A stretch of DNA of 28,180 bases from positions 1-28,180 of the forward strand of contig JANRIL010000014.1 of assembly GCA_033764955.1 (NCBI GenBank), in the 5' to 3' direction. The notes beneath the pieces are model-generated. The model was not told the DNA's origin. It saw only the letters and a program-made list of their open reading frames with translations, and ran no database searches. Made by a program: the position numbers and the translations under genes. This document shows positions 1,107 to 26,411 of this stretch, one piece after another. Each line of letters begins with the position of its first letter. The first letter of the stretch is position 1. The DNA comes from Cyanobacteriota bacterium (GTDB lineage: Bacteria; Cyanobacteriota; Cyanobacteriia; Thermostichales; Thermostichaceae).

Positions 1107-3092
1107 CTAGGGAGTTCCGCGCAGGTATTGTTCAATCCCTTGGGCAATCGCCTGAGCCAGTTGCGCCTGATATTCAGGGCTAGCCAGCCGCCGTCCCTCC
1201 GCTGGATTCGTAACATACCCCATCTCTAGCAAAACGGAGGGCATGGTGGTCGGAGTTTCCCGCACCATAAAGAAGCGGGCGCGTCTCACCCCCCGGTCGG
1301 CAGCCCCCGTAGCTTGCACCATATTTTGATGCATGACGGTGGCAAGGCGGGCACTATCTGGGCGCAAATAATAGGTTTCGATCCCGCTCACTCCAGAACG
1401 ATCCAGAGCATTGGCGTGAATGCTCACCAAGATCGAGGCTTGACTGGCTACCGCCGTATCCACCCGTGGTTGCAATAAAATCTCGCGGTCATCGGTGCGG
1501 GTTAAAACCACGCCAATGCCTTTGGCCTGTAGCCGTTGGGCGACTTGCTGGGCGACGGACAAGGTAATGTGTTTTTCTTGAATGCCATCCACACCCACCG
1601 CTCCGGGATCCCGTCCGCCATGTCCGGCGTCGAGAGCCACTATCGCCTGTCCGGCAGGAATCGTGGGAGCACTAAAACTAAAGGTCGAGCCATCGGCGGC
1701 TTGCAGTTGCAGGTCAATACGGCGGGTACCCTGCCCGGGGGCAGATTCAATCACTGTAAATTCTTGGGCAGGCTGCACCAAAATGCTGACGGTTTGGGGA
1801 CTCTCTTGCAAAAAGCGAATGCGCTCGACCGGTCCATCGGCGGGCAGGTTAGGATCCGGCAGGGTGGCGGGTAGGCGAGCAGGTGTGACCGAAATGCGAT
1901 AGCCCCCACTGGAGGGATCCCAGCCACTGCGATAAAACAAAAAACCATCGGCGGTTATGGTTAACTGGCTGCCCTGCAATTGCACCGATTGAATCGTCGC
2001 CAACGAGCCTTGATAGTTGCTGGGAGCGTCCGGTAGCAGGCTCGACTGTTGTTGTCCTCCGGCGGGCACAATGCGAATCCCCCCCTGCTGAGGATCGTAG
2101 ATGGTTTCCCAGTCGCCCGCCGAGGGATCCACCTCCAGCACCACCCGCGTCACCGTCGGTTCAAATTGCCCTACCCGCACGCGACTTACCCCCAAGCGGT
2201 TGACACTCCAATTGCGTTGGCTGAGGGCTTTACTGAGGGTGGTATCTAGCAGATCAATCAAGATGCGGTCGGGATCCGCAATCCGCCGCACACTCGCGGA
2301 GGCAGATCCGGTGGTCTTAACCAAAAAGCCCTCTTCTAAGGTGCTGATTGCCAAAACCTCAACTCCTCCTGATGAAGTGACAGAAGGCAGAGGGGGAGTA
2401 GCCGGCAGGGGAGGTGGGCTGATGCCGGGGGGCAATAGAGGGGTAAAGCGGGGAATCGGGGTGGGAAGGGGGGTAGAACTGACAAGCGGCAAGAGGGGGG
2501 TAAAACGGGGAATCGGAGTGGAAAGGGGAGGAGGAGGACTCCCACTGGTTATGTTCGCGGTGGGCAGAGCTAAATTGGCGGCGTTGGTAAATTGCACAGC
2601 CCAGCGTTGGGGATCCGCCGTTTGTAGTTGTAGTTGTTGGAGGGTGAGGGGCTGGCTGGGATCCACGGTCATGACAAAGCGGGTCACCGTATCGGTCATT
2701 TGACTGACTTGCAACGTCTGCACCCGTCCCGGATAGCTAGCCGATTGGGGATCCCGACCCAAGCGGGTATTGGGGAAATCGACGACCACTCGTGGCGGAT
2801 TTTGCAGGATGAATAGAGAGGGGCGAACCGCTCCCGTGGTGGTGACTTCCAGGCGACCCGTTTCGGGTTGATAATCCCAGGAGTCAAGGCGAGCGGGTGG
2901 GGCAGCCGTTGGCGAGGATGGGGAGAGGGGTGGCGGCGATAGGGGATCGGTGGCTTGGGCAAAAGCCGATAAAGGTAACAACAGACTTACACCAAAAGCC
3001 AACGTGAGGGGAGCTAGCGTTCGGGATCCCCACCTCCCCCCAGCCCACCCCAAATAGGGCACTAGCGGCCATGCGTAGCGTTTTTTTGACAT
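1107..3092 (-). CDS. amiC: N-acetylmuramoyl-L-alanine amidase with N-terminal AMIN domains
   Basis: Signal-like N-terminus (LSAFA), AMIN-like segments (NPPRVVVDF, DPDRILIDL, RVGQFEPTVTRVVL), and an Amidase_3 domain (LDAGHGGRDPGA, E, SIHANA, SVLLEMGY). Confidence 0.93.
   Translation of the reverse strand: MSKKRYAWPLVPYLGWAGGRWGSRTLAPLTLAFGVSLLLPLSAFAQATDPLSPPPLSPSSPTAAPPARLDSWDYQPETGRLEVTTTGAVRPSLFILQNPPRVVVDFPNTRLGRDPQSASYPGRVQTLQVSQMTDTVTRFVMTVDPSQPLTLQQLQLQTADPQRWAVQFTNAANLALPTANITSGSPPPPLSTPIPRFTPLLPLVSSTPLPTPIPRFTPLLPPGISPPPLPATPPLPSVTSSGGVEVLAISTLEEGFLVKTTGSASASVRRIADPDRILIDLLDTTLSKALSQRNWSVNRLGVSRVRVGQFEPTVTRVVLEVDPSAGDWETIYDPQQGGIRIVPAGGQQQSSLLPDAPSNYQGSLATIQSVQLQGSQLTITADGFLFYRSGWDPSSGGYRISVTPARLPATLPDPNLPADGPVERIRFLQESPQTVSILVQPAQEFTVIESAPGQGTRRIDLQLQAADGSTFSFSAPTIPAGQAIVALDAGHGGRDPGAVGVDGIQEKHITLSVAQQVAQRLQAKGIGVVLTRTDDREILLQPRVDTAVASQASILVSIHANALDRSGVSGIETYYLRPDSARLATVMHQNMVQATGAADRGVRRARFFMVRETPTTMPSVLLEMGYVTNPAEGRRLASPEYQAQLAQAIAQGIEQYLRGTP
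2431..2528 (-). repeat. In-frame 57-nt-period duplication encoding TPIPRFTPLLP twice in the amidase Pro-rich linker
   Basis: Copies start at 2431 (ggcaatagaggggtaaagcggggaatcgggg) and 2488 (ggcaagaggggggtaaaacggggaatcggag). Confidence 0.85.
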
Positions 3093-3200
3093 TTGATTGG
3101 GTAATCCTCCGCCACACCTGCTGCACTCAACTATACCAACCCCCTTTGCGGTGATGCGGGTATTTCCCGTAAATTTGCAGCTAAGTGGTTGGAGAAAGGG

Positions 3201-4223
3201 TCAGATGGAGTAGCTAAAGGGAAAGGCTTTCGCCTCTTTTAACTTGACGTAGACATGCTGCCCCGGCTGAATTTGTAAGCCCTGAAACTGTTCACGGTTC
3301 ATGTGTACGGTGACAAGCTGGTGATCGTCAAAAACCAGCTCTGTTTGCACCTCCCAGCCTAGGTGAATGATGCGATTGACTTTGGCGGATACCCCACTGC
3401 TAGCGGGATCCGTCTCGATCAAGACATCATGAGGGCGCAAAAACACCTGCTGCCCATCCAAATTGCAGTGGGGAGGGGATCCCTGCAAAATAAACGAGTC
3501 GCTGGCTAGGACGTTGACAGGGCCAATAAAGCTCATAACAAAGGCATTGGCGGGGTGATCATAAATGTGGGCGGGGGATCCCACCTGCTGAACCCGTCCC
3601 TCATGCATCACCACGAGTTGATCCGCCACTTCCATCGCTTCTTCTTGGTCATGGGTGACAAATACGGTGGTCACATGCACCTCATCGTGCAAACGACGTA
3701 GCCAAGCCCGCAGATCCTTACGGACTTTGGCATCTAACGCCCCAAAAGGCTCGTCTAGCAACAATACCTGCGGCTCTACCGCCAGCGAACGAGCCAGTGC
3801 CACCCGTTGCCGCTGTCCACCCGATAGTTGGGAGGGATAGCGATCCCCTAGCCCCTTAAGTTGAATCAAATTCAGCAATTCTTCTACCCGCTTCTGCACC
3901 TTTGCTTTCGGTTGTTTGCGAATTTGCAGACCAAAGGCAATGTTCTCGCGGACGCTCATATGCTTAAAGAGGGCGTAGTGCTGAAAAACAAAGCCAATGT
4001 TGCGATCCTGGACACTTTGGTGGGTGGCATCTTTGCCCGTCAACCAAATTCGTCCCGTGTCCGGCATCTCTAATCCAGCAATCAATCTCAGAAGGGTTGA
4101 CTTGCCAGAGCCGGAAGGTCCCAACAATGCCACCAGGGATCCCGAAGCAATATTCAGGTTGACATCCGCCACTGCCTGAAAGCTGCCAAAGCGTTTCGAG
4201 ACATTTTCTACAACAATTGCCAC
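3201..4223 (-). CDS. cysA: Sulfate/thiosulfate ABC transporter ATP-binding subunit
   Basis: Walker [43 protein letters not shown] and a C-terminal TOBE-like region. GGGAGG Shine-Dalgarno precedes the GTG start. Confidence 0.95.
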
Positions 4224-4917: not shown

Positions 4918-5439
4918 ATGCATTTCTTTACCCCAGAACTATACATACAGTTCAACTCATCAGATGCTGAGATAGCGGATAAAGCTGACGAAGCGTGGGA
5001 AGTTGCACTCCAAGAATATCAACATCACCTTGAGAGAATCCGCCCTGCAATGCCTCCACAGGTTGCTAAGATTTCGGAACTCGGTCTTCATGATGCTGAA
5101 GTTCTGAAGCTGCAACAAGAGGTAGAAATCCTTCCATACTCTTTCCCTCTAGCAACCATAATCAACCTTAAGCAAGGCAGAGAGATTTTGTCTTTGATTT
5201 ATATACTTTATGCGCCGACTCGTAGCTACTCTGCTAAGGATGGATGGCATTTTTCTAAGCTGCGAAAGCATTGGCTCTATGATGAGTTTGACACACAAAG
5301 CAGCAAAGGCAGCCTATTTCTTCATCGCATCTTATTTAGTGATGGGAGTGTGCTTGAGATCCCATTCTTGTTTGTGATTACTTCCAGCTTCAGATTGCCA
5401 GGGGAAGATGAAAATGAGATTAGCAGGCAGATTGCTTAG
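4918..5439 (+). CDS. Hypothetical protein, DUF4085-like (MHFFT..LHDAE..WLYDE..HRILF motifs)
   Basis: Part of ORF 4882..5439. ATG 4918 gives an MxF/YFT N-terminus typical of this family as recalled. The DNA is AT-richer and lacks GGGATCCC. Confidence 0.7.
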   Translation: MHFFTPELYIQFNSSDAEIADKADEAWEVALQEYQHHLERIRPAMPPQVAKISELGLHDAEVLKLQQEVEILPYSFPLATIINLKQGREILSLIYILYAPTRSYSAKDGWHFSKLRKHWLYDEFDTQSSKGSLFLHRILFSDGSVLEIPFLFVITSSFRLPGEDENEISRQIA

Positions 5440-22508: not shown

Positions 22509-22558
22509 CAACTAGACTGCTTATTGATTGTCTGTTGACAGTCAAAGTGACATCTCCT

Positions 22559-23005
22559 ATGGTCTACACCGAAGAATCTTTTAAGGCTGAACTTAACTCC
22601 CGTGGTTGGCGTGCTACCCCGCAGCGGGAGGTGATTCTACAAACCTTTCAAAACCTACCGGAAGGCAAGCACCTCAGCGCCGAAGAATTGCGTGACCACC
22701 TCAAGGAGATGGGGCATGATATTAGCCTTTCCACCATCTACCGCACGGTTAAACTAATGGCTCGCATGGGCATCTTGCGGGAGTTAGAACTGACGGAAGG
22801 CCATAAGCACTACGAAATTAACCAACCCAGCCCCCACCATCACCATCATCTCGTCTGCGTTAAGACTAACCAGGTGATTGAATTCAAAAGCAACGCCATC
22901 TTGGGCATTACCCAAAAAGTAGCCGAAAAGTACGGCTATAAGGTTCTCGATTGCCAACTCACCATCATCGGGGTCAGCCCAGAGGGACAGCGATCCATTA
23001 TTTGA
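22559..23005 (+). CDS. fur: Ferric uptake regulator, cyanobacterial FurA type
   Basis: KAELNSRGWR.TPQRE, HLSAEEL, SLSTIYRT.KLMARMGILRELEL.EGHKHYE and HHHHHLVC. ATG 22559 is preferred over TTG 22535. Confidence 0.95.
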   Translation: MVYTEESFKAELNSRGWRATPQREVILQTFQNLPEGKHLSAEELRDHLKEMGHDISLSTIYRTVKLMARMGILRELELTEGHKHYEINQPSPHHHHHLVCVKTNQVIEFKSNAILGITQKVAEKYGYKVLDCQLTIIGVSPEGQRSII

Positions 23006-23052
23006 ACCAATAACCTCTGTTCTGTCAGCACCAACGATGTGTTAGCTGGCTC
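23006..23052 (-). other. Truncated attC-like site (R'' and L'' half only), cut off at the fur stop codon
   Basis: Minus strand reads GAGCC-AGCTAAC (R'') ACATC GTTGGTGC (L'') TGACAGAACAGAGGTTATTGGT and then the fur TGA. It aligns with the first half of the site at 23277-23362. Confidence 0.7.
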
Positions 23053-23098
23053 ATTCTACGAACTGCCTCTCAGTACGACTCAAAAAGTTAGGGAGAAG

Positions 23099-23227
23099 TT
23101 AGGGCTGAAAGCGAAAACGCACAAGTTCTTGCAACGCAAGTTTAATCAATTCTTCTAGCGTGGTAAGGTGGGTGAGTTGAAGTGCTTCATTAATGAACGC
23201 TTCGTCAAGATTAAGGATAATTTTCAT
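23099..23227 (-). pseudogene. vapB: VapB-type (DUF2191-like) antitoxin remnant, 42 aa; toxin gene absent
   Basis: MKIILNLDEAFINEALQLTHLTTLEELIKLALQELVRFRFQP* has the ribbon-helix-helix pattern of DUF2191/VapB antitoxins but lacks the usual C-terminal toxin-binding tail. Below the ORF-track length cutoff. Confidence 0.75.
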
Positions 23228-23276
23228 AGAGTTGTTACCAAATAAATGGACATTAAGGAGCCATTGAAGTGGAGCC

Positions 23277-23362
23277 AGCTAATGGTAAAGTGGAGCGGCG
23301 ACAGATAATCTTGAAATTCACACCAGCAGCTTGCGTCCATCCGCTGCCACGCAGTGTTAGGT
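23277..23362 (-). other. Full-length (86 bp) attC-like recombination site with a mutated R' core
   Basis: Minus strand: ACCTAAC (R'') + 5 nt + GTGGCAGC (L'') GGA ... CC GCTCCAC (L') + 6 nt + ATTAGCT (R', GTT changed to ATT). GTGG/CCAC and AGCGG/CCGCT pair, leaving an unpaired C and A. It begins 11 nt after the endonuclease stop. Confidence 0.8.
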
Positions 23363-23373
23363 GGCTGTTGCTT

Positions 23374-24342
23374 CTACAGACTGCATAGCCAACGAGAAAT
23401 GGATGCAACTTGATGCTCCTCATTTAAGTTTGCAGCATTACTGAGCGTCCCGCTTTCTAATTGCTTCCAAATCTCACCAGCCATCCTTTTCTCAATCGCC
23501 GCTCCTACAAAAAATGTAAGTGGTGAATGACCAGAATCCGTGAATGCTTGTCGTATACGATTGAGTGCCGCTTGTGCCGTTTTCCAATGCTCGTCAGCAC
23601 CGGCTGGATCAATTCCGCCCTTCAGTTCTCCCAATGCAATTGTGTAAGGCTTAACTTTAGCAGGCTCAATTTTGCTGGATTTATTAGCTAACGGTGCTTC
23701 TGGAGCAGGATTGAACAAACAGAGATCTACATTACTTTTGACTAACGGAATATTCAGGTTATAGATAAGAGTGCGCCTACCAAGATTGCTCTCCCAACTG
23801 AGTCCACGTAAAGATAATTCAATTTCTGTATCGTCGTTTGTCATTGCTACCCACTTTTTTGTCTTTGAATGCTGCCAATGATAGCTTTGACCCGCAATGG
23901 TCAGGGTTGAGAGGATAGCACGAGTCAGCTTCCTTTGTGCCAAAGCCCCACCAACATTACGCATTGAGCCACCAAGCGTATCACCACGAGTCAATAGAAA
24001 TCTAAAAACTAATTCCTCCACGAAGTTTGAACCTGCTGGTTCAAGAAAGTTTTTGATCAGACCGTTAATCGCATCAATTTTATCCCCTGGTGTCAAATGC
24101 GCAAGAGATTTGTCAGATAGTCCTGCCGCAGTTAACAAGCCCATCTCAATACCCTGAATGTTTAGCAAATCAGTAGGACTTCTAACTTGATTTGCTGCTG
24201 CTTGAAGTGCCCTTGCCTCTGCAACATAAGGAGTAGCTCGTCGATTCTTCTCAAGTGCAAGGGCTACAAAGCCCGCACGAGTTGCTTCATAGGTTGTTAC
24301 AAGATTATCACTAGACTGGAGATGGTTACGATAAGCAGTCAT
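23374..24342 (-). CDS. Type II restriction endonuclease, AvaI/BsoBI family (predicted site CYCGRG)
   Basis: [49 protein letters not shown] and [19 protein letters not shown] are recognised as AvaI/BsoBI family; 322 aa. Confidence 0.92.
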
Positions 24343-24351
24343 AGGATCAAA

Positions 24352-25785
24352 TTACTGTTTTCTCCATACATAAACACATTTCCTCAAAGGATCACGCCCG
24401 TGATTGCCCATCTGCTGGCTACTATTACCCTTATCACTAGGTAAAACGAGAATATTTTCAACTGTAAACCCTAGCTTCTCTGCAAAGCTGGAGAGGAGCA
24501 TATCTACTGAAATACTTACGCCAGAGTAACGTACATTGTCATTAACCATAAACAAAAGTGCCCCAGGTTTGAGAACACGAGAACACTCTTGTATGACACA
24601 AGCCATTTCGTAAAAGTAACCTCTCACCATTCTGGGTATTCCGTTATTATTTAAGACACCCTGGAGTTTTTGATTGTCTAAGTACTTCAGGATAGCTTGC
24701 AACAAAGGTTGTGAATTTGCAGTCTCTAAAGCCAAGTTCCAATTTGGATTGATAGCCAATAGATCTTTTGAGCGATTTTCAACTGTGCAACTTAGCATCT
24801 CCTGGCGGAGATCGATTAATCCCTTTTCAGAAACATCTAATAATGCAAGCTCTAATGCGTAAGTACGAGTGTAGTCATACCGATTGCAATAGGGTGGAGA
24901 CGTGATAACAGCATCATAAACTGCATCAGGTAAAGTTGGCAGCAATTTGAGGCAAGACCCTTTGTAAAGTTGAATTTCACCTTGTGATCTCTTGACTGAG
25001 AAAAGTTCTACTTGATAGGTATGAGGTTCCAGGTCGTTAATAATTTCTTCAAGTTTACGGGTGATAGCACAATCGAAATCTAGAATTTCACCTTTATTGA
25101 AAGGTTTCTTCCCTTGCCCACGACCGGAACGATAGTCCCAACGGAGATATTGACCATCTTTGCGAGTGTAGCTTATGGACTCTAAAACACAAAGCAAAGC
25201 AAAGAGTAAAACTTCTCGGACTCTTTCATTCTCTTGCGACAGAGAACCGAGATATTGCTCAATTGCCCTCTTATTTTCTGTAGAGTAGGCTCCTTTTGTA
25301 ATCCTAAATTCTGGCAGGCATAATTCCTGTTCAGTCTGTTTCCATATCTGCAAACTTAACCACGTCTTGAGACGTTCAAGATCATCCGATATAAATTTAG
25401 TATCGAGAACCTGTTTCGTTTCAATAATTTGTTGACCGATGGGTAACAATTCAATACCGTCGGTATCAAATCCTAAATCACTAGCAGCAAACAAAGCCGT
25501 TCCGCTACCTGCAAATGGGTCTAACATCTTGCCCTGCTTAATCCCGTATTTTTGCAGTAAAAGCTCAACAAGAGAGGCAGAGAAGGCTTCTTTGTACTTA
25601 TACCATCGATAAATAGGTCTTGTTTTGTTAGCTTGGAAGCTTACTAAAAGTCTAGTGAGTGCAGGCTGAACTAAAAACTTAGTTTGAAAATGATGTTGCA
25701 ATTGTTTGTCAAGGTTATCAATTTCCCTAAGAGCATTATTTTGGACTTCAGGAGCAGTGTCGGAGATGCTTGACAGACTTGTCAC
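24352..25785 (-). CDS. Cognate N4-cytosine DNA methyltransferase (M.AvaI/M.BsoBI-like)
   Basis: Motif I DPFAGSGT precedes motif IV TSPPY; also [10 protein letters not shown] and KGNSSQQMG. Ends 9 nt before the endonuclease ATG; AGGGA Shine-Dalgarno before the GTG. Confidence 0.92.
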
Positions 25786-25818
25786 AAGTATTAGTCCCTA
25801 TGAAATACGGATCTGCCT

Positions 25819-25827
25819 ATTATATCA
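25819..25827 (-). promoter_or_regulatory. Extended -10 promoter inside the R-M cassette
   Basis: TGATATAAT (TGnTATAAT) on the minus strand, 33 nt upstream of the methylase start. Confidence 0.65.
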
Positions 25828-25917
25828 GTGTCTCCGGTAGGTACCCTAATCTGGGCTACATCGCGTGGCTTCTCAACAGTGCCCCAACAGATATGTGGAA
25901 GCTACCTAACTGGCGTT

Positions 25918-25965
25918 AAGAATAAACAATGGGGGTTGTGTTGTACTTATGACACAACCCTATTG
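25918..25965 (-). terminator. Probable intrinsic terminator of the kinase/regulator operon
   Basis: Stem GGGTTGTGT/ACACAACCC with flanking CAAT/ATTG, followed by TTTATTCTT on the minus strand, immediately after the TAA at 25967. Confidence 0.55.
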
Positions 25966-25966
25966 A

Positions 25967-26140
25967 TTAGGTGCCTAGATCCCAATTTAAAGTAGATGCG
26001 ATCGCCCGGTGCAATGTCAATGGGTCAAAAGGTTTGGCTATGATTCCTTTAACTCCTAGTGTTTCATAATGATGGGGTTTGAGTAATCCAGCCTGTGCAG
26101 TCAAAAACACCACAGGTATAAACTGCATTTCCGGCTTAGC
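25967..26140 (-). pseudogene. C-terminal half of a second response-regulator receiver domain
   Basis: Reads AKPEMQFIPVVFLTAQAGLLKPHHYETLGVKGIIAKPFDPLTLHRAIASTLNWDLGT*, with the conserved LTA and KPF motifs, in a different frame from the upstream receiver. Confidence 0.8.
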
Positions 26141-26411
26141 CCACTGCAGTGAACAAAATCACTGGGATCGACCGCGTGATGGGGTCGGTCTTTAAAGTTT
26201 GCAGCAGAGCCAGCCCCTTCCCATTCAGATTGAGATCCAGCAAAATCACGTCAGGTTGTTGCTCTTTGGCTTGCGCTAGTCCCGCTTGTACAGACTCAGA
26301 GGTTATAACCGTCCAACCCTTTAGTCGTTCTAGCGTCACTTTAACAATGCGGCTTAGTTCAGGTTCGTCGTCAACGACAAGAATGCAGCGATCGCCATCA
26401 GAAGAGGACAT
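26136..26411 (-). pseudogene. C-terminally truncated single-domain response regulator
   Basis: ILVVDDE, PDVILLD (phospho-Asp) and IPVILFTA, then a stop at 91 aa; lacks alpha4-beta5-alpha5 and the KP motif. Confidence 0.8.

Follow-up and report, generated by a model that had tools for sequence, protein, structure and literature searches.

Genes for restriction-modification (R-M) are over-represented in integrons, where small restriction systems of types II and IV are prevalent (Darracq et al., 10.1101/2024.07.02.601686). Cassettes away from their integrase have been described in two forms. Clusters of at least 2 attC sites within 4 kb, with no intI nearby, are known as CALINs (PMC4889954). Insertion at secondary sites of consensus GWT, and the single stray attC sites called SALINs, are dealt with in 10.1101/2022.09.11.507474, which also anticipates the decay or deletion of the folded attC. 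A covariance model specific to the attC sites of Cyanobacteria exists, and the attC sites of a given taxon form a homogeneous group (Ghaly et al. 2021, PMC8352920). Cassettes with R-M genes, integrons of cyanobacteria and stray cassettes were thus all known before, and the case reported here is a clean example of a known event. No link of BsoBI or AvaI to integrons was found in the literature searched.

The window, i.e. the whole stretch of 28,180 nt of a cyanobacterial contig that was analysed, hosts a two-gene R-M system of the BsoBI/AvaI family between a fur gene and a response-regulator gene. The 2627-nt segment including it (23283-25909) is very probably an integron gene cassette endowed with its own attC. 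As in the defence cassettes of Darracq et al. (10.1101/2024.07.02.601686), a compact defence system is contained in one cassette, in sense orientation and followed by an attC, and a promoter of its own is apparent, as in some of those described there. Unlike them, the present one is cyanobacterial, belongs to the BsoBI/AvaI family, spans 2.6 kb and two genes, lies at a non-integron site and has a decayed attC. The features of the region are the following:

22535-23005, plus strand: fur gene, intact, left flank of the cassettes (Pfam FUR, E 3.3e-39; its C-terminus matches that of the fur product of G014, a relative)
23006-23052, minus strand: truncated attC of the vapB cassette, with R'' (GAGCCAGCTAAC, 23052-23041), a spacer and an L''-like box
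23053-23282, minus strand: body of the vapB cassette, starting with TTAGCTGGCTCC at 23282
23099-23227, minus strand: vapB ORF, 42 aa (Pfam VapB_antitoxin, E 1.5e-10, profile positions 1-37 of 47)
23275-23364, minus strand: attC of the R-M cassette (match to covariance model R1)
23283-25909, minus strand: R-M cassette, 2627 nt, delimited by shared homology and by the attC
23374-24342, minus strand: type II restriction endonuclease of the BsoBI/AvaI family, 322 aa, apparently intact
24352-25785, minus strand: DNA methyltransferase partner of the endonuclease, 477 aa, GTG start, DPFAGSGT and SPPY motifs
25786-25909, minus strand: cassette leader, starting with TTAGGTAGCT at 25909
25909-25910, minus strand: 5' junction G|TT of the cassette (G = 25910, TT = 25909-25908), set by the start of homology in other genomes
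25910-26411, minus strand: native right flank, comprising a hairpin and a response-regulator pseudogene

An earlier, sequence-only reading of this DNA had noted an 86-nt imperfect palindrome with attC architecture, located 11 nt past the stop codon of the endonuclease gene (23374-23376), and the palindrome is present as described. Read on the minus strand, the R'' box is ACCTAAC (23362-23356) and the R' box ATTAGCT (23283-23277). L'' and L' pair with one extra base, next to which a second unpaired A is found, and crossover is expected between 23283 and 23282. The site was challenged with a covariance model, R1, derived from 17 attC sites located elsewhere in the same genome (alignment A1), the window site being left out. 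R1 is distinct from the model used by IntegronFinder and, differently from the Cyanobacteria model of Ghaly et al. 2021 (PMC8352920), represents the sites of this genome only. In A1, 89% of the cells are paired, versus 79% in shuffles, and changes on both sides occur in 38 cells versus 15 expected, a number reached by 0 of 500 shuffles. The model matches 23275-23364 along its entire length (positions 1-91 of 91) at 52.8 bits, with an E-value of 1.6e-11 that is rough, as are all R1 E-values, because calibration was shortened. The match was obtained without restoring a G at 23283, and only on the minus strand, which also encodes the R-M genes. By R1 score, the site is 31st among the 61 sites of the genome. 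The runner-up in the window scored 10.4 bits (E 2), and the R1 scan of the window revealed no other significant attC. We conclude that 23275-23364 is a true attC.

The plus strand of the palindrome (23277-23362), which is the bottom strand of the site, folds as single-stranded DNA at -7.1 kcal/mol, and the minus strand at -7.0 kcal/mol. The hairpin is no better than those of shuffled sequence (z = +1.33; equalled or surpassed by 190 of 200 shuffles). This result would suit the notion that the palindrome is a transcription terminator or a generic repeat, and that the R-M pair was carried, as a small island, by a mechanism unrelated to integrons; so would the fact that no integrase is encoded in the contig. 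Against this notion stand the strand-specific, full-length match to R1, and the results of an Rfam search of 22800-26200, in which no relevant family was detected and the sole match was a chance one (E 0.24).

Sites of the same family form arrays beside intI in this genome, which also argues against a generic repeat. Two intI genes exceed the TIGR02249 cut-off of 265, one in contig C9 (19-960, 463 bits) and one in contig C38 (63588-64529, 451 bits). In C9, intI faces 8 cassettes, in which ORFs are found on the opposite strand, each followed by an attC; the eighth attC is weak (18.2 bits). The genome hosts at least 61 attC sites of this family, 24 of which are solitary, as well as 13 attC clusters and several intI fragments besides the two apparently intact genes. 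It is accordingly a good natural system for measuring how frequently cassettes exit from integrons, and for following the later fate of their attC sites. Neither intI nor remnants of it were found in the 28-kb contig. The locus had been called integrase-less, which is correct for the contig and does not extend to the genome. It had also been likened to a CALIN array. Since only one full attC is present, the region is a single attC plus a truncated one, below the CALIN definition, and fits a SALIN plus a remnant. Homogeneous attC sites are what is described for taxon-specific families (Ghaly et al. 2021, PMC8352920), and here one family spans several cyanobacterial genera.

The boundaries of the unit can be read by comparison with other genomes. 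Homology to the window, as measured by blastn, runs from 25909 to 23273 in locus L054, from 25911 to 23284 in L056 and from 25910 to 23273 in L059; in L058 it reaches 25911 and 23273, around an insertion. In alignments A3 and A4 homology begins exactly at G|TTAG, and the sequence upstream is different in each genome. The flanks of the unit also differ among the four loci, and in L059 the unit sits between two attC sites, within a four-attC array. The same G|TT boundaries in different contexts denote a discrete mobile unit. It had been predicted that sequence shared with R-M homologues would stop at the two ends of the unit; it does, at 25909-25911 and, within the attC, at 23273-23284, and the neighbours differ. 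Of 80 loci, 8 have an attC behind the endonuclease at E <= 3e-5, and a ninth has one at E 0.017. The attC of the window is homologous to those located behind the same endonuclease in 8 other genomes, and the cassette belongs to a pool shared among cyanobacteria. None is found behind the endonuclease in the remaining 71 of 80 loci, a point that could again be taken in favour of movement by a non-integron mechanism. That reading is already contradicted by the R1 match, the boundaries shared with four other genomes and the intI-linked array of C9, and is extremely improbable. The match to the attC model and the shared boundaries support the earlier proposal that an AvaI/BsoBI-type system of two genes travelled as one cassette.

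The cassette consists of a leader with an apparent extended -10 promoter of its own, the methyltransferase gene, the endonuclease gene and an attC of the integron family of this genome. The endonuclease spans the whole Pfam profile Endonuc-BsobI (PF09194; E 1.5e-167, positions 1-313 of 313), and is also matched by the PADLOC profile REase_II (E 2.1e-120). Residues 4-321 align to residues 7-322 of BsoBI (PDB 1dc1; E 1.8e-109), and the NVD..ELK..DEHW residues are identical. The catalytic residues are presumably D212, E240, K242 and H253. The methyltransferase matches Pfam N6_N4_Mtase (E 4.4e-10) and, by residues 15-476, positions 26-480 of 481 of the PADLOC profile MTase_II PDLC03224 (E 4.5e-160); its gene and that of the endonuclease are co-linear in 50 of 56 loci examined. 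A full-length endonuclease retaining active-site residues and an adjoining full-length methyltransferase assign the pair to the BsoBI/AvaI type. The similarity to the type IIP systems of BsoBI and AvaI thus includes full-length alignment of the endonuclease, identity of the aligned active-site residues and a partner of the N4/N6 methyltransferase family, and the CYCGRG specificity is predicted from the family. The pair looks intact and is probably functional, serving for defence and addiction as ordinary type II modules do; judging from its family, it would methylate and cleave DNA at CYCGRG. The ratio of observed to expected CYCGRG words in the genome is 0.11-0.21. Avoidance of AvaI sites was discarded as evidence of activity, being unspecific: equal or stronger avoidance is seen for many palindromic hexamers.

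In the leader, an extended -10 box, TGATATAAT, is found from 25827 to 25819, 33 nt ahead of the GTG start. The motif TGnTATAAT or TGnTATACT is kept in 12 of the 12 loci of alignment A5, including loci that lack an attC. A scan with the sigma-70 consensus detected no promoter in the leader, and 3 sites in the whole region versus 5.4 expected from shuffles. The cassette had been described as self-promoted; support for this comes from the conserved box, and not from the consensus scan.

The R-M unit is followed on the minus strand by a second, smaller unit. Its attC is truncated, lacks the L'/R' half and abuts the stop codon of fur (23003-23005; alignment A2). The truncated site is not significant by R1 (8.1 bits, E 7.6). 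Still, it matches five places in four other genomes at 83-89% identity, and all five are full-length attC sites by R1 (55-69 bits). Two further matches are found in the genome itself, at C35:96433-96471 and C9:8386-8429, the latter inside the intI-linked array. A half-site homologous to the attC of the R-M cassette had been claimed at this position: the claim is sustained by the matches to full attC sites elsewhere, and not by the covariance model. The possibility that the conserved 46-nt half-site is a tRNA fragment was dismissed, as neither tRNA nor tmRNA genes were detected by ARAGORN in the window.

VapBC pairs consist of an antitoxin gene followed by a gene for a PIN-domain toxin, and only the former is found here. 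The vapB ORF is separated from R'' by 47 nt, which leave no room for a toxin gene. Neither another vapB copy nor a full vapBC cassette was found in the genome. Among 30 genomes of the order, counting G000, two vapB relatives were identified, and no attC could be detected with either. A partner is seen in L134 only, where the 47-aa relative precedes a PIN-like ORF, supported at E 7e-4, which is below the Pfam cut-off. The term vapB remnant used previously is therefore apt for the cassette, in which the toxin gene is missing and the attC truncated, and less so for vapB, which looks full-length, being about as long as its L134 relative.

Each unit was also said to begin with a tract complementary to its own downstream R''. 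Complementarity is observed at 9 of 10 positions in the R-M unit and at 11 of 11 in the vapB unit. When the two starts are compared to all the 62 R'' extensions of the genome, the R-M start matches its own R'' at 9 of 12 positions, a shared second place, since another site reaches 10 of 12 (the mode is 7), and the vapB start matches best its own half-site (11 of 12), followed by five sites at 10 of 12. Complementarity is real in both units, yet it partly reflects the family consensus, and is only slightly above the family background.

The cassette lies outside any integron, and the sequence that its 5' end meets at G|TT belongs to neither an attC nor an attI. Such a product is expected of IntI inserting a circular cassette at a secondary site (attG, consensus GWT). 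The vapB cassette downstream, of which the toxin gene would have been lost and the attC cut to its R''-L'' half, would be an older, decayed cassette. Insertion at a secondary site is the route we favour, with some reservation. The arrangement resembles SALINs and small CALINs at attG (10.1101/2022.09.11.507474; PMC4889954) in having a cassette and its attC away from intI, a G|TT junction to ordinary genomic sequence and an IntI encoded elsewhere; it differs in that two cassettes are in tandem, the attC of the second is truncated, and the attG route is deduced.

The right flank is native sequence. The response-regulator pseudogene is split in two frames (25967-26128 and 26136-26411), both matched by Pfam Response_reg, and a hairpin with a 9-bp stem (25933-25960) is found past its stop codon (25967-25969). 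R1 detected no attC in this flank. The hairpin was considered as a second attC and rejected, being undetected by R1 even with filters off; the ACCTAA that resembles R'' is where the regulator reading frame terminates. The flank upstream of the cassette was similarly discarded as an attI remnant, as it matches the attI regions of C9 and C38 over 9 nt at best (E >= 0.69).

An empty site was sought on both sides. In 30 relatives hosting fur, none of the same genus, homology ends at the fur stop codon and no empty site was found; in G014, fur is followed by secA. A search with the kinase gene in 5 genomes retrieved paralogues only, and one with regulator-flank DNA in 30 relatives nothing usable. 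A scan of metagenomes identified two close contigs, L138 and L139. L139, the nearest, carries the kinase gene and then two tandem regulator genes, between which the window lacks 459 nt; it diverges right past the regulator stop codon, and does not include fur. As no empty site was found, the insertion route is deduced from one junction, the downstream one having been lost, with the WT bases of the target, along with the truncated attC.

The same cassettes might alternatively be a fragment of a former array or decayed integron, left between fur and the regulator gene by rearrangement or deletion rather than inserted one by one. The left end, a break inside an attC abutting the fur stop codon, is in keeping with this, and the illegitimate deletion of 459 nt between the two regulator genes indicates that the region has suffered deletions. 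The attC clusters and intI fragments of the genome also speak for it, and Cury et al. 2016 (PMC4889954) name rearrangement and the loss of intI as ways in which CALINs arise. However, a right boundary falling exactly at G|TT, beside sequence unrelated to attC or attI, is not expected of a random breakpoint. The contig is devoid of intI remnants, and synteny with L139 extends along the kinase-regulator flank as far as the stop codon of the regulator gene. A former array is hence credible, though rather unlikely, and insertion at a secondary site is retained as the preferred route.

The attC of the R-M cassette is more than imperfect and seems to have decayed. The crossover triplet in R' is ATT instead of GTT (A for G at 23283), whereas GTT is kept in 57 of the 60 other attC sites of the genome; the AAC of R'' fits. 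The ATT triplet is read as decay of a family member, and not as a sign that the site is foreign to the family. Two further substitutions weaken the stem beside the second bulged base. Because of these changes, the cassette is probably immobilised. Continued mobility, in which the IntI of the genome would tolerate the ATT core and weak stem and the cassette could be excised and captured by the C9 or C38 integrons, is improbable. Such a view can draw on the two apparently intact intI genes, and on the R and L boxes and bulged bases, all kept and reproduced as R/L stems by the minimum-energy fold. Several family members, moreover, fold as weakly: bottom-strand energies range from -4.4 to -21 kcal/mol (median -10.7), and that of the R-M cassette attC ranks 54th of 61. 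Cury et al. 2016 (PMC4889954) also point out that, with an integrase gene located elsewhere in the genome, excision of CALIN cassettes may still occur. Conservation of GTT speaks against mobility, as does the fact that the AAC triplet of the bottom strand is the cleavage site described in 10.1101/2022.09.11.507474; in addition, an upstream attC partner for excision is missing.

Precise junctions, traced by sequence comparison alone, indicate that a complete type II R-M system, with an apparent promoter of its own, moves among cyanobacteria as a single 2.6-kb cassette. Such cassettes may become fixed at ordinary chromosomal sites, where their origin is invisible to gene annotation. The locus is a cyanobacterial, two-gene addition to the recent view that integrons store genes for defence against phages, and likewise to the proposal of cassettes escaping into genomes by way of secondary sites. 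A broader view, which we regard as doubtful, is that R-M cassettes are one-way passengers of integrons. The BsoBI/AvaI cassette would have spread over several cyanobacterial families, mostly at non-integron sites, and its attC would cease to function much more frequently than those of ordinary cassettes. The reason might be that a cell dies when an addictive R-M module is excised, so that lineages with a dead site would be favoured. If this were true, integrons and attG insertion would be a delivery route seeding permanent defence genes in chromosomes. Among the ten closest copies of the cassette, that of the window included, the attC is apparently intact in three, has a mutated crossover triplet in five, an internal deletion in one, and is replaced in one.

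The contig (28,180 nt, all of it within the window) belongs to a cyanobacterial assembly of 3.8 Mb in 48 contigs. The following features are of concern here.

22535-23005, plus strand, fur
23099-23227, minus strand, ORF for a VapB antitoxin of 42 aa
23277-23362, candidate attC
23374-24342, minus strand, BsoBI-family endonuclease gene (PF09194, E 1.5e-167, full profile)
24352-25785, minus strand, methyltransferase gene
25967-26411, minus strand, response-regulator gene, split in two frames
same region as the R-M genes and the split regulator, histidine kinase gene

The endonuclease aligns with BsoBI (PDB 1dc1) over residues 4-321 (E 1.8e-109), and its NVD, ELK and DEHW residues, which we take to be catalytic, are identical to those of BsoBI. 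Residues 15-476 of the methyltransferase match the PADLOC type II methyltransferase profile (E 4.5e-160). The two genes and the attC are denominated here the R-M unit (23283-25909, minus strand). An extended -10 box (TGATATAAT, 25827 to 25819, minus strand) is located 33 nt ahead of the methyltransferase GTG start, and all 12 loci aligned have TGnTATAAT or TGnTATACT there, among them Nostoc and Microcoleus copies that lack an attC and have nothing else in common further upstream. The putative promoter of its own assigned to the system in the sequence-only reading is supported by this conservation, but a sigma-70 consensus scan of the leader was empty, for want of a fitting -35 box. The GTG start codon of the methyltransferase lies within a perfect 6-1-6 palindrome (ACTTGTGACAAGT, 25777-25789), which the copies borne on cassettes conserve; an operator and an RNA structure are conceivable, and mere coding constraint could also account for it.

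Judged by folding alone, the palindrome behind the endonuclease gene is unimpressive. The plus strand folds as single-stranded DNA at -7.1 kcal/mol (z = +1.33), 190 of 200 shuffles being equal or better, and the opposite strand gives a similar picture. Seventeen family sites from nine contigs of the same genome were aligned as the basis of a covariance model, R1; the window site was not included, and the site-search pattern would miss it because its R' is ATTA. In the alignment 89% of the cells are paired in the attC manner, against 79% in shuffles and 23-57% in slid controls. Changes on both sides of a pair involve 38 cells, against 15 expected, a value reached in none of 500 shuffles, and the attC-type pairing is thus supported by covariation. 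R1 matches the unrepaired window site over its full length, on the minus strand only (23275-23364, 52.8 bits, E 1.6e-11); the second-best match in the window, with filters off, scores 10.4 bits. At least 61 sites on 23 contigs were found in the genome at E <= 0.01, the window site ranking 31st; this number is a lower bound, 150 of 1033 first-look candidates having been scored.

Two intI genes exceed the TIGR02249 cut-off of 265 bits, one on contig C9 (19-960, 463 bits), the other on contig C38 (63588-64529, 451 bits); intI fragments are found on C36, C4, C30 and C38. The two genes are intact, with products that share 90% identity, and both are adjoined by repeats of about 80 nt of the type TAAC...AGCGG...CCGCT...GTTA. 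On C9, intI lies on one strand and is followed by eight cassettes with ORFs on the opposite strand; every cassette is closed by an attC, that of the eighth scoring only 18.2 bits by R1. The model tells the strands of these sites apart (84.4 vs 31.7 bits, for example), and the family on C9 is a textbook integron. Taken together, the intI genes, the attC family and R1 settle the identity of the window palindrome as an attC.

About 243 nt beyond the intI start are common to C9 (961-1203) and C38 (63347-63587) at 77% identity, and include a nearly perfect palindrome of 31 nt with AGTTAGGC immediately behind it, a candidate attI with crossover at G|TT. Of the at least 61 attCs, 24 stand alone, 27 are grouped into 11 clusters without an integrase, and ten adjoin intI on C9 or C38. 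Most of them are thus remote from any integrase, though the assembly is fragmented.

Scanning one genome per species with the endonuclease yielded 103 relatives, and 80 loci were retained. Cyanobacterial copies show 73-92% protein identity, and those from Chloroflexi and Poribacteria are more distant. An attC directly follows the endonuclease gene on the same strand in eight of the 80 loci (L053, L054, L056, L057, L058, L059, L060 and L065; R1, E <= 3e-5). A match at E 0.017 was found in L079, and none behind the endonuclease gene in the remaining 71. The nine loci with at least 84.5% DNA identity to the window are these eight and L055, which keeps only the R'' of its attC. Homology to the window detected by blastn runs from 25909 to 23273 in L054, 25911 to 23284 in L056, 25910 to 23273 in L059, 25911 to 23273 in L058, around an internal insertion, and 25893 to 23284 in L053. 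When aligned, the units start exactly at G|TTAG, with different upstream sequences in every genome, and homology stops at the R' of the attC. In L059 the unit is flanked by two attCs (2348-2437 and 4979-5068), in a same-strand series of four. These shared ends within differing flanks bear out the proposal that the R-M pair is one cassette. Beforehand, lack of a model match and homology extending past the boundaries had been named as evidence against it; a match, and homology ending at the boundaries, are what was found.

Around the 80 loci, intI was absent out to a distance of 4 kb; in the genome of L056, two full-length intI genes are located on contigs other than that of the unit. The term integrase-less holds for the window, but not for its genome, with its two intI genes. 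Nor is the locus, which had been called CALIN-like, a CALIN, because a CALIN by the IntegronFinder definition requires at least two attCs, and a single attC and a remnant are found here. The palindrome and R-M observation is confirmed, and the integron-cassette interpretation of the pair, so amended, is supported.

Integrons have been reported in Cyanobacteria (PMC4889954, PMC2426708), for which a specific attC model already exists (PMC8352920), and have been described as enriched in R-M genes, small type II and type IV systems being the prevalent restriction systems there (10.1101/2024.07.02.601686). Neither a link of BsoBI/AvaI systems to integron cassettes nor a description of the window cassette was found in full-text searches; supplementary tables of these surveys may list them.

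Complementarity between cassette start and R'' had been noted in both units, and is present in both, but reflects largely a family-wide consensus, AGCCAGCTAAC against GTTAGCTGGCT. Compared with all 62 R'' extensions of the genome, the R-M start pairs with its own at 9/12 positions, tied second after an unrelated site at 10/12 (mode 7); the vapB start pairs best with its own (11/12), five sites reaching 10/12. Complementarity is consistent with a cassette, and is weaker evidence than the cross-genome boundaries.

The half-site following vapB (23006-23052) fails the covariance model (8.1 bits, E 7.6), yet the 46 nt match five places in four other genomes at 83-89% identity, all full attCs by R1 (55-69 bits), as well as C9:8386-8429, within the intI-linked array, and C35:96433-96471. 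The window retains the R''-L'' half only; the place of the remainder is occupied by fur, from its 3' side, and the Fur C-terminus is intact. In L134, the single informative relative, a 47-aa ORF is followed by a PIN-like ORF (E 7e-4, under the Pfam cut-off). The unit is a toxin-antitoxin remnant in that the toxin gene is missing, because only 47 nt separate the vapB ORF from R''; vapB itself, about equal in length to the L134 ORF, appears full-length. In another genus of the same taxonomic family (L048, G014:C1:1927500-1931600, 2010-3903), an attC of the subtype of the vapB half-site (68.6 bits) is found behind an N6_N4 methyltransferase gene (E 5e-40) and two short ORFs without Pfam family; this may be a further cassette with a methyltransferase, different from that of the window.

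From 25910 on, upstream of the junction at the 5' end, the sequence flanks the regulator gene on its 3' side; it has a hairpin of 9-bp stem (25933-25960) and no attC by R1, and resembles neither the C9 nor the C38 attI region. The flank with the kinase and the regulator is native: in the metagenome contig L139, a kinase gene with 88% identity at the DNA level precedes two intact regulator genes in tandem. The split regulator equals the two L139 genes minus the intervening 459 nt (junction near 26128-26136 of 25967-26411), and both copies of an IPVxxxTA motif are kept, out of frame. Because of the missing 459 nt, the two motif copies and the lost frame, it is a pseudogene, generated by illegitimate deletion.

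Origins described for CALINs include the secondary-site route, rearrangement and intI loss (Cury et al. 2016, PMC4889954). A relocated array fragment is a possible, rather doubtful, source of the R-M segment; a precise G|TT junction against non-att sequence is what an integrase would leave by inserting a cassette at a secondary site. Such sites have a GWT consensus, and SALINs and the expected deletion of stray attCs have been described (10.1101/2022.09.11.507474). Arrival by secondary-site insertion is somewhat probable, an estimate kept moderate because no empty site was found among the 30 relatives' genomes and the metagenome contigs examined, and the downstream junction is lost.

Compared with relatives, the window attC has A for the G of the crossover GTT (23283) and two C-to-T changes in the stem past the second bulged base. 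In bottom-strand stability it stands 54th among the 61 sites (family median -10.7, range -21.0 to -4.4 kcal/mol). From the altered triplet, the weakened stem and the low rank, we infer that the site is decaying and the cassette probably fixed in place. Of the genome's 60 other attCs, 57 retain GTT, as do four of the eight R-M-linked sites elsewhere (L054, L057, L058 and L059, not L053, L056, L060 and L065); the L057 site has an internal deletion as well. The difference (4/4 vs 57/3, Fisher p = 0.0026) may point to excess GTT loss in R-M-linked sites, and is a lead, not a result, because the sites are few and related. Across L053-L060 and L065 the attC behind the unit is often damaged, and in L055 its place is taken by a short tandem repeat. 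Two variants of the R-M attC occur in other genomes, with an L'' box of the GTGGCAGCGG or the GTTGGTGCGG type, the latter resembling the vapB half-site.

Just two CYCGRG sites are found in the window (1734 and 9870), none in the cassette. Palindromic hexamers are strongly avoided in the whole genome (observed/expected GGCGCC 0.04, GAGCTC 0.05, CGGCCG 0.05, CCCGGG 0.11, CTCGAG 0.15), as would fit a long history of contact with numerous R-M systems.
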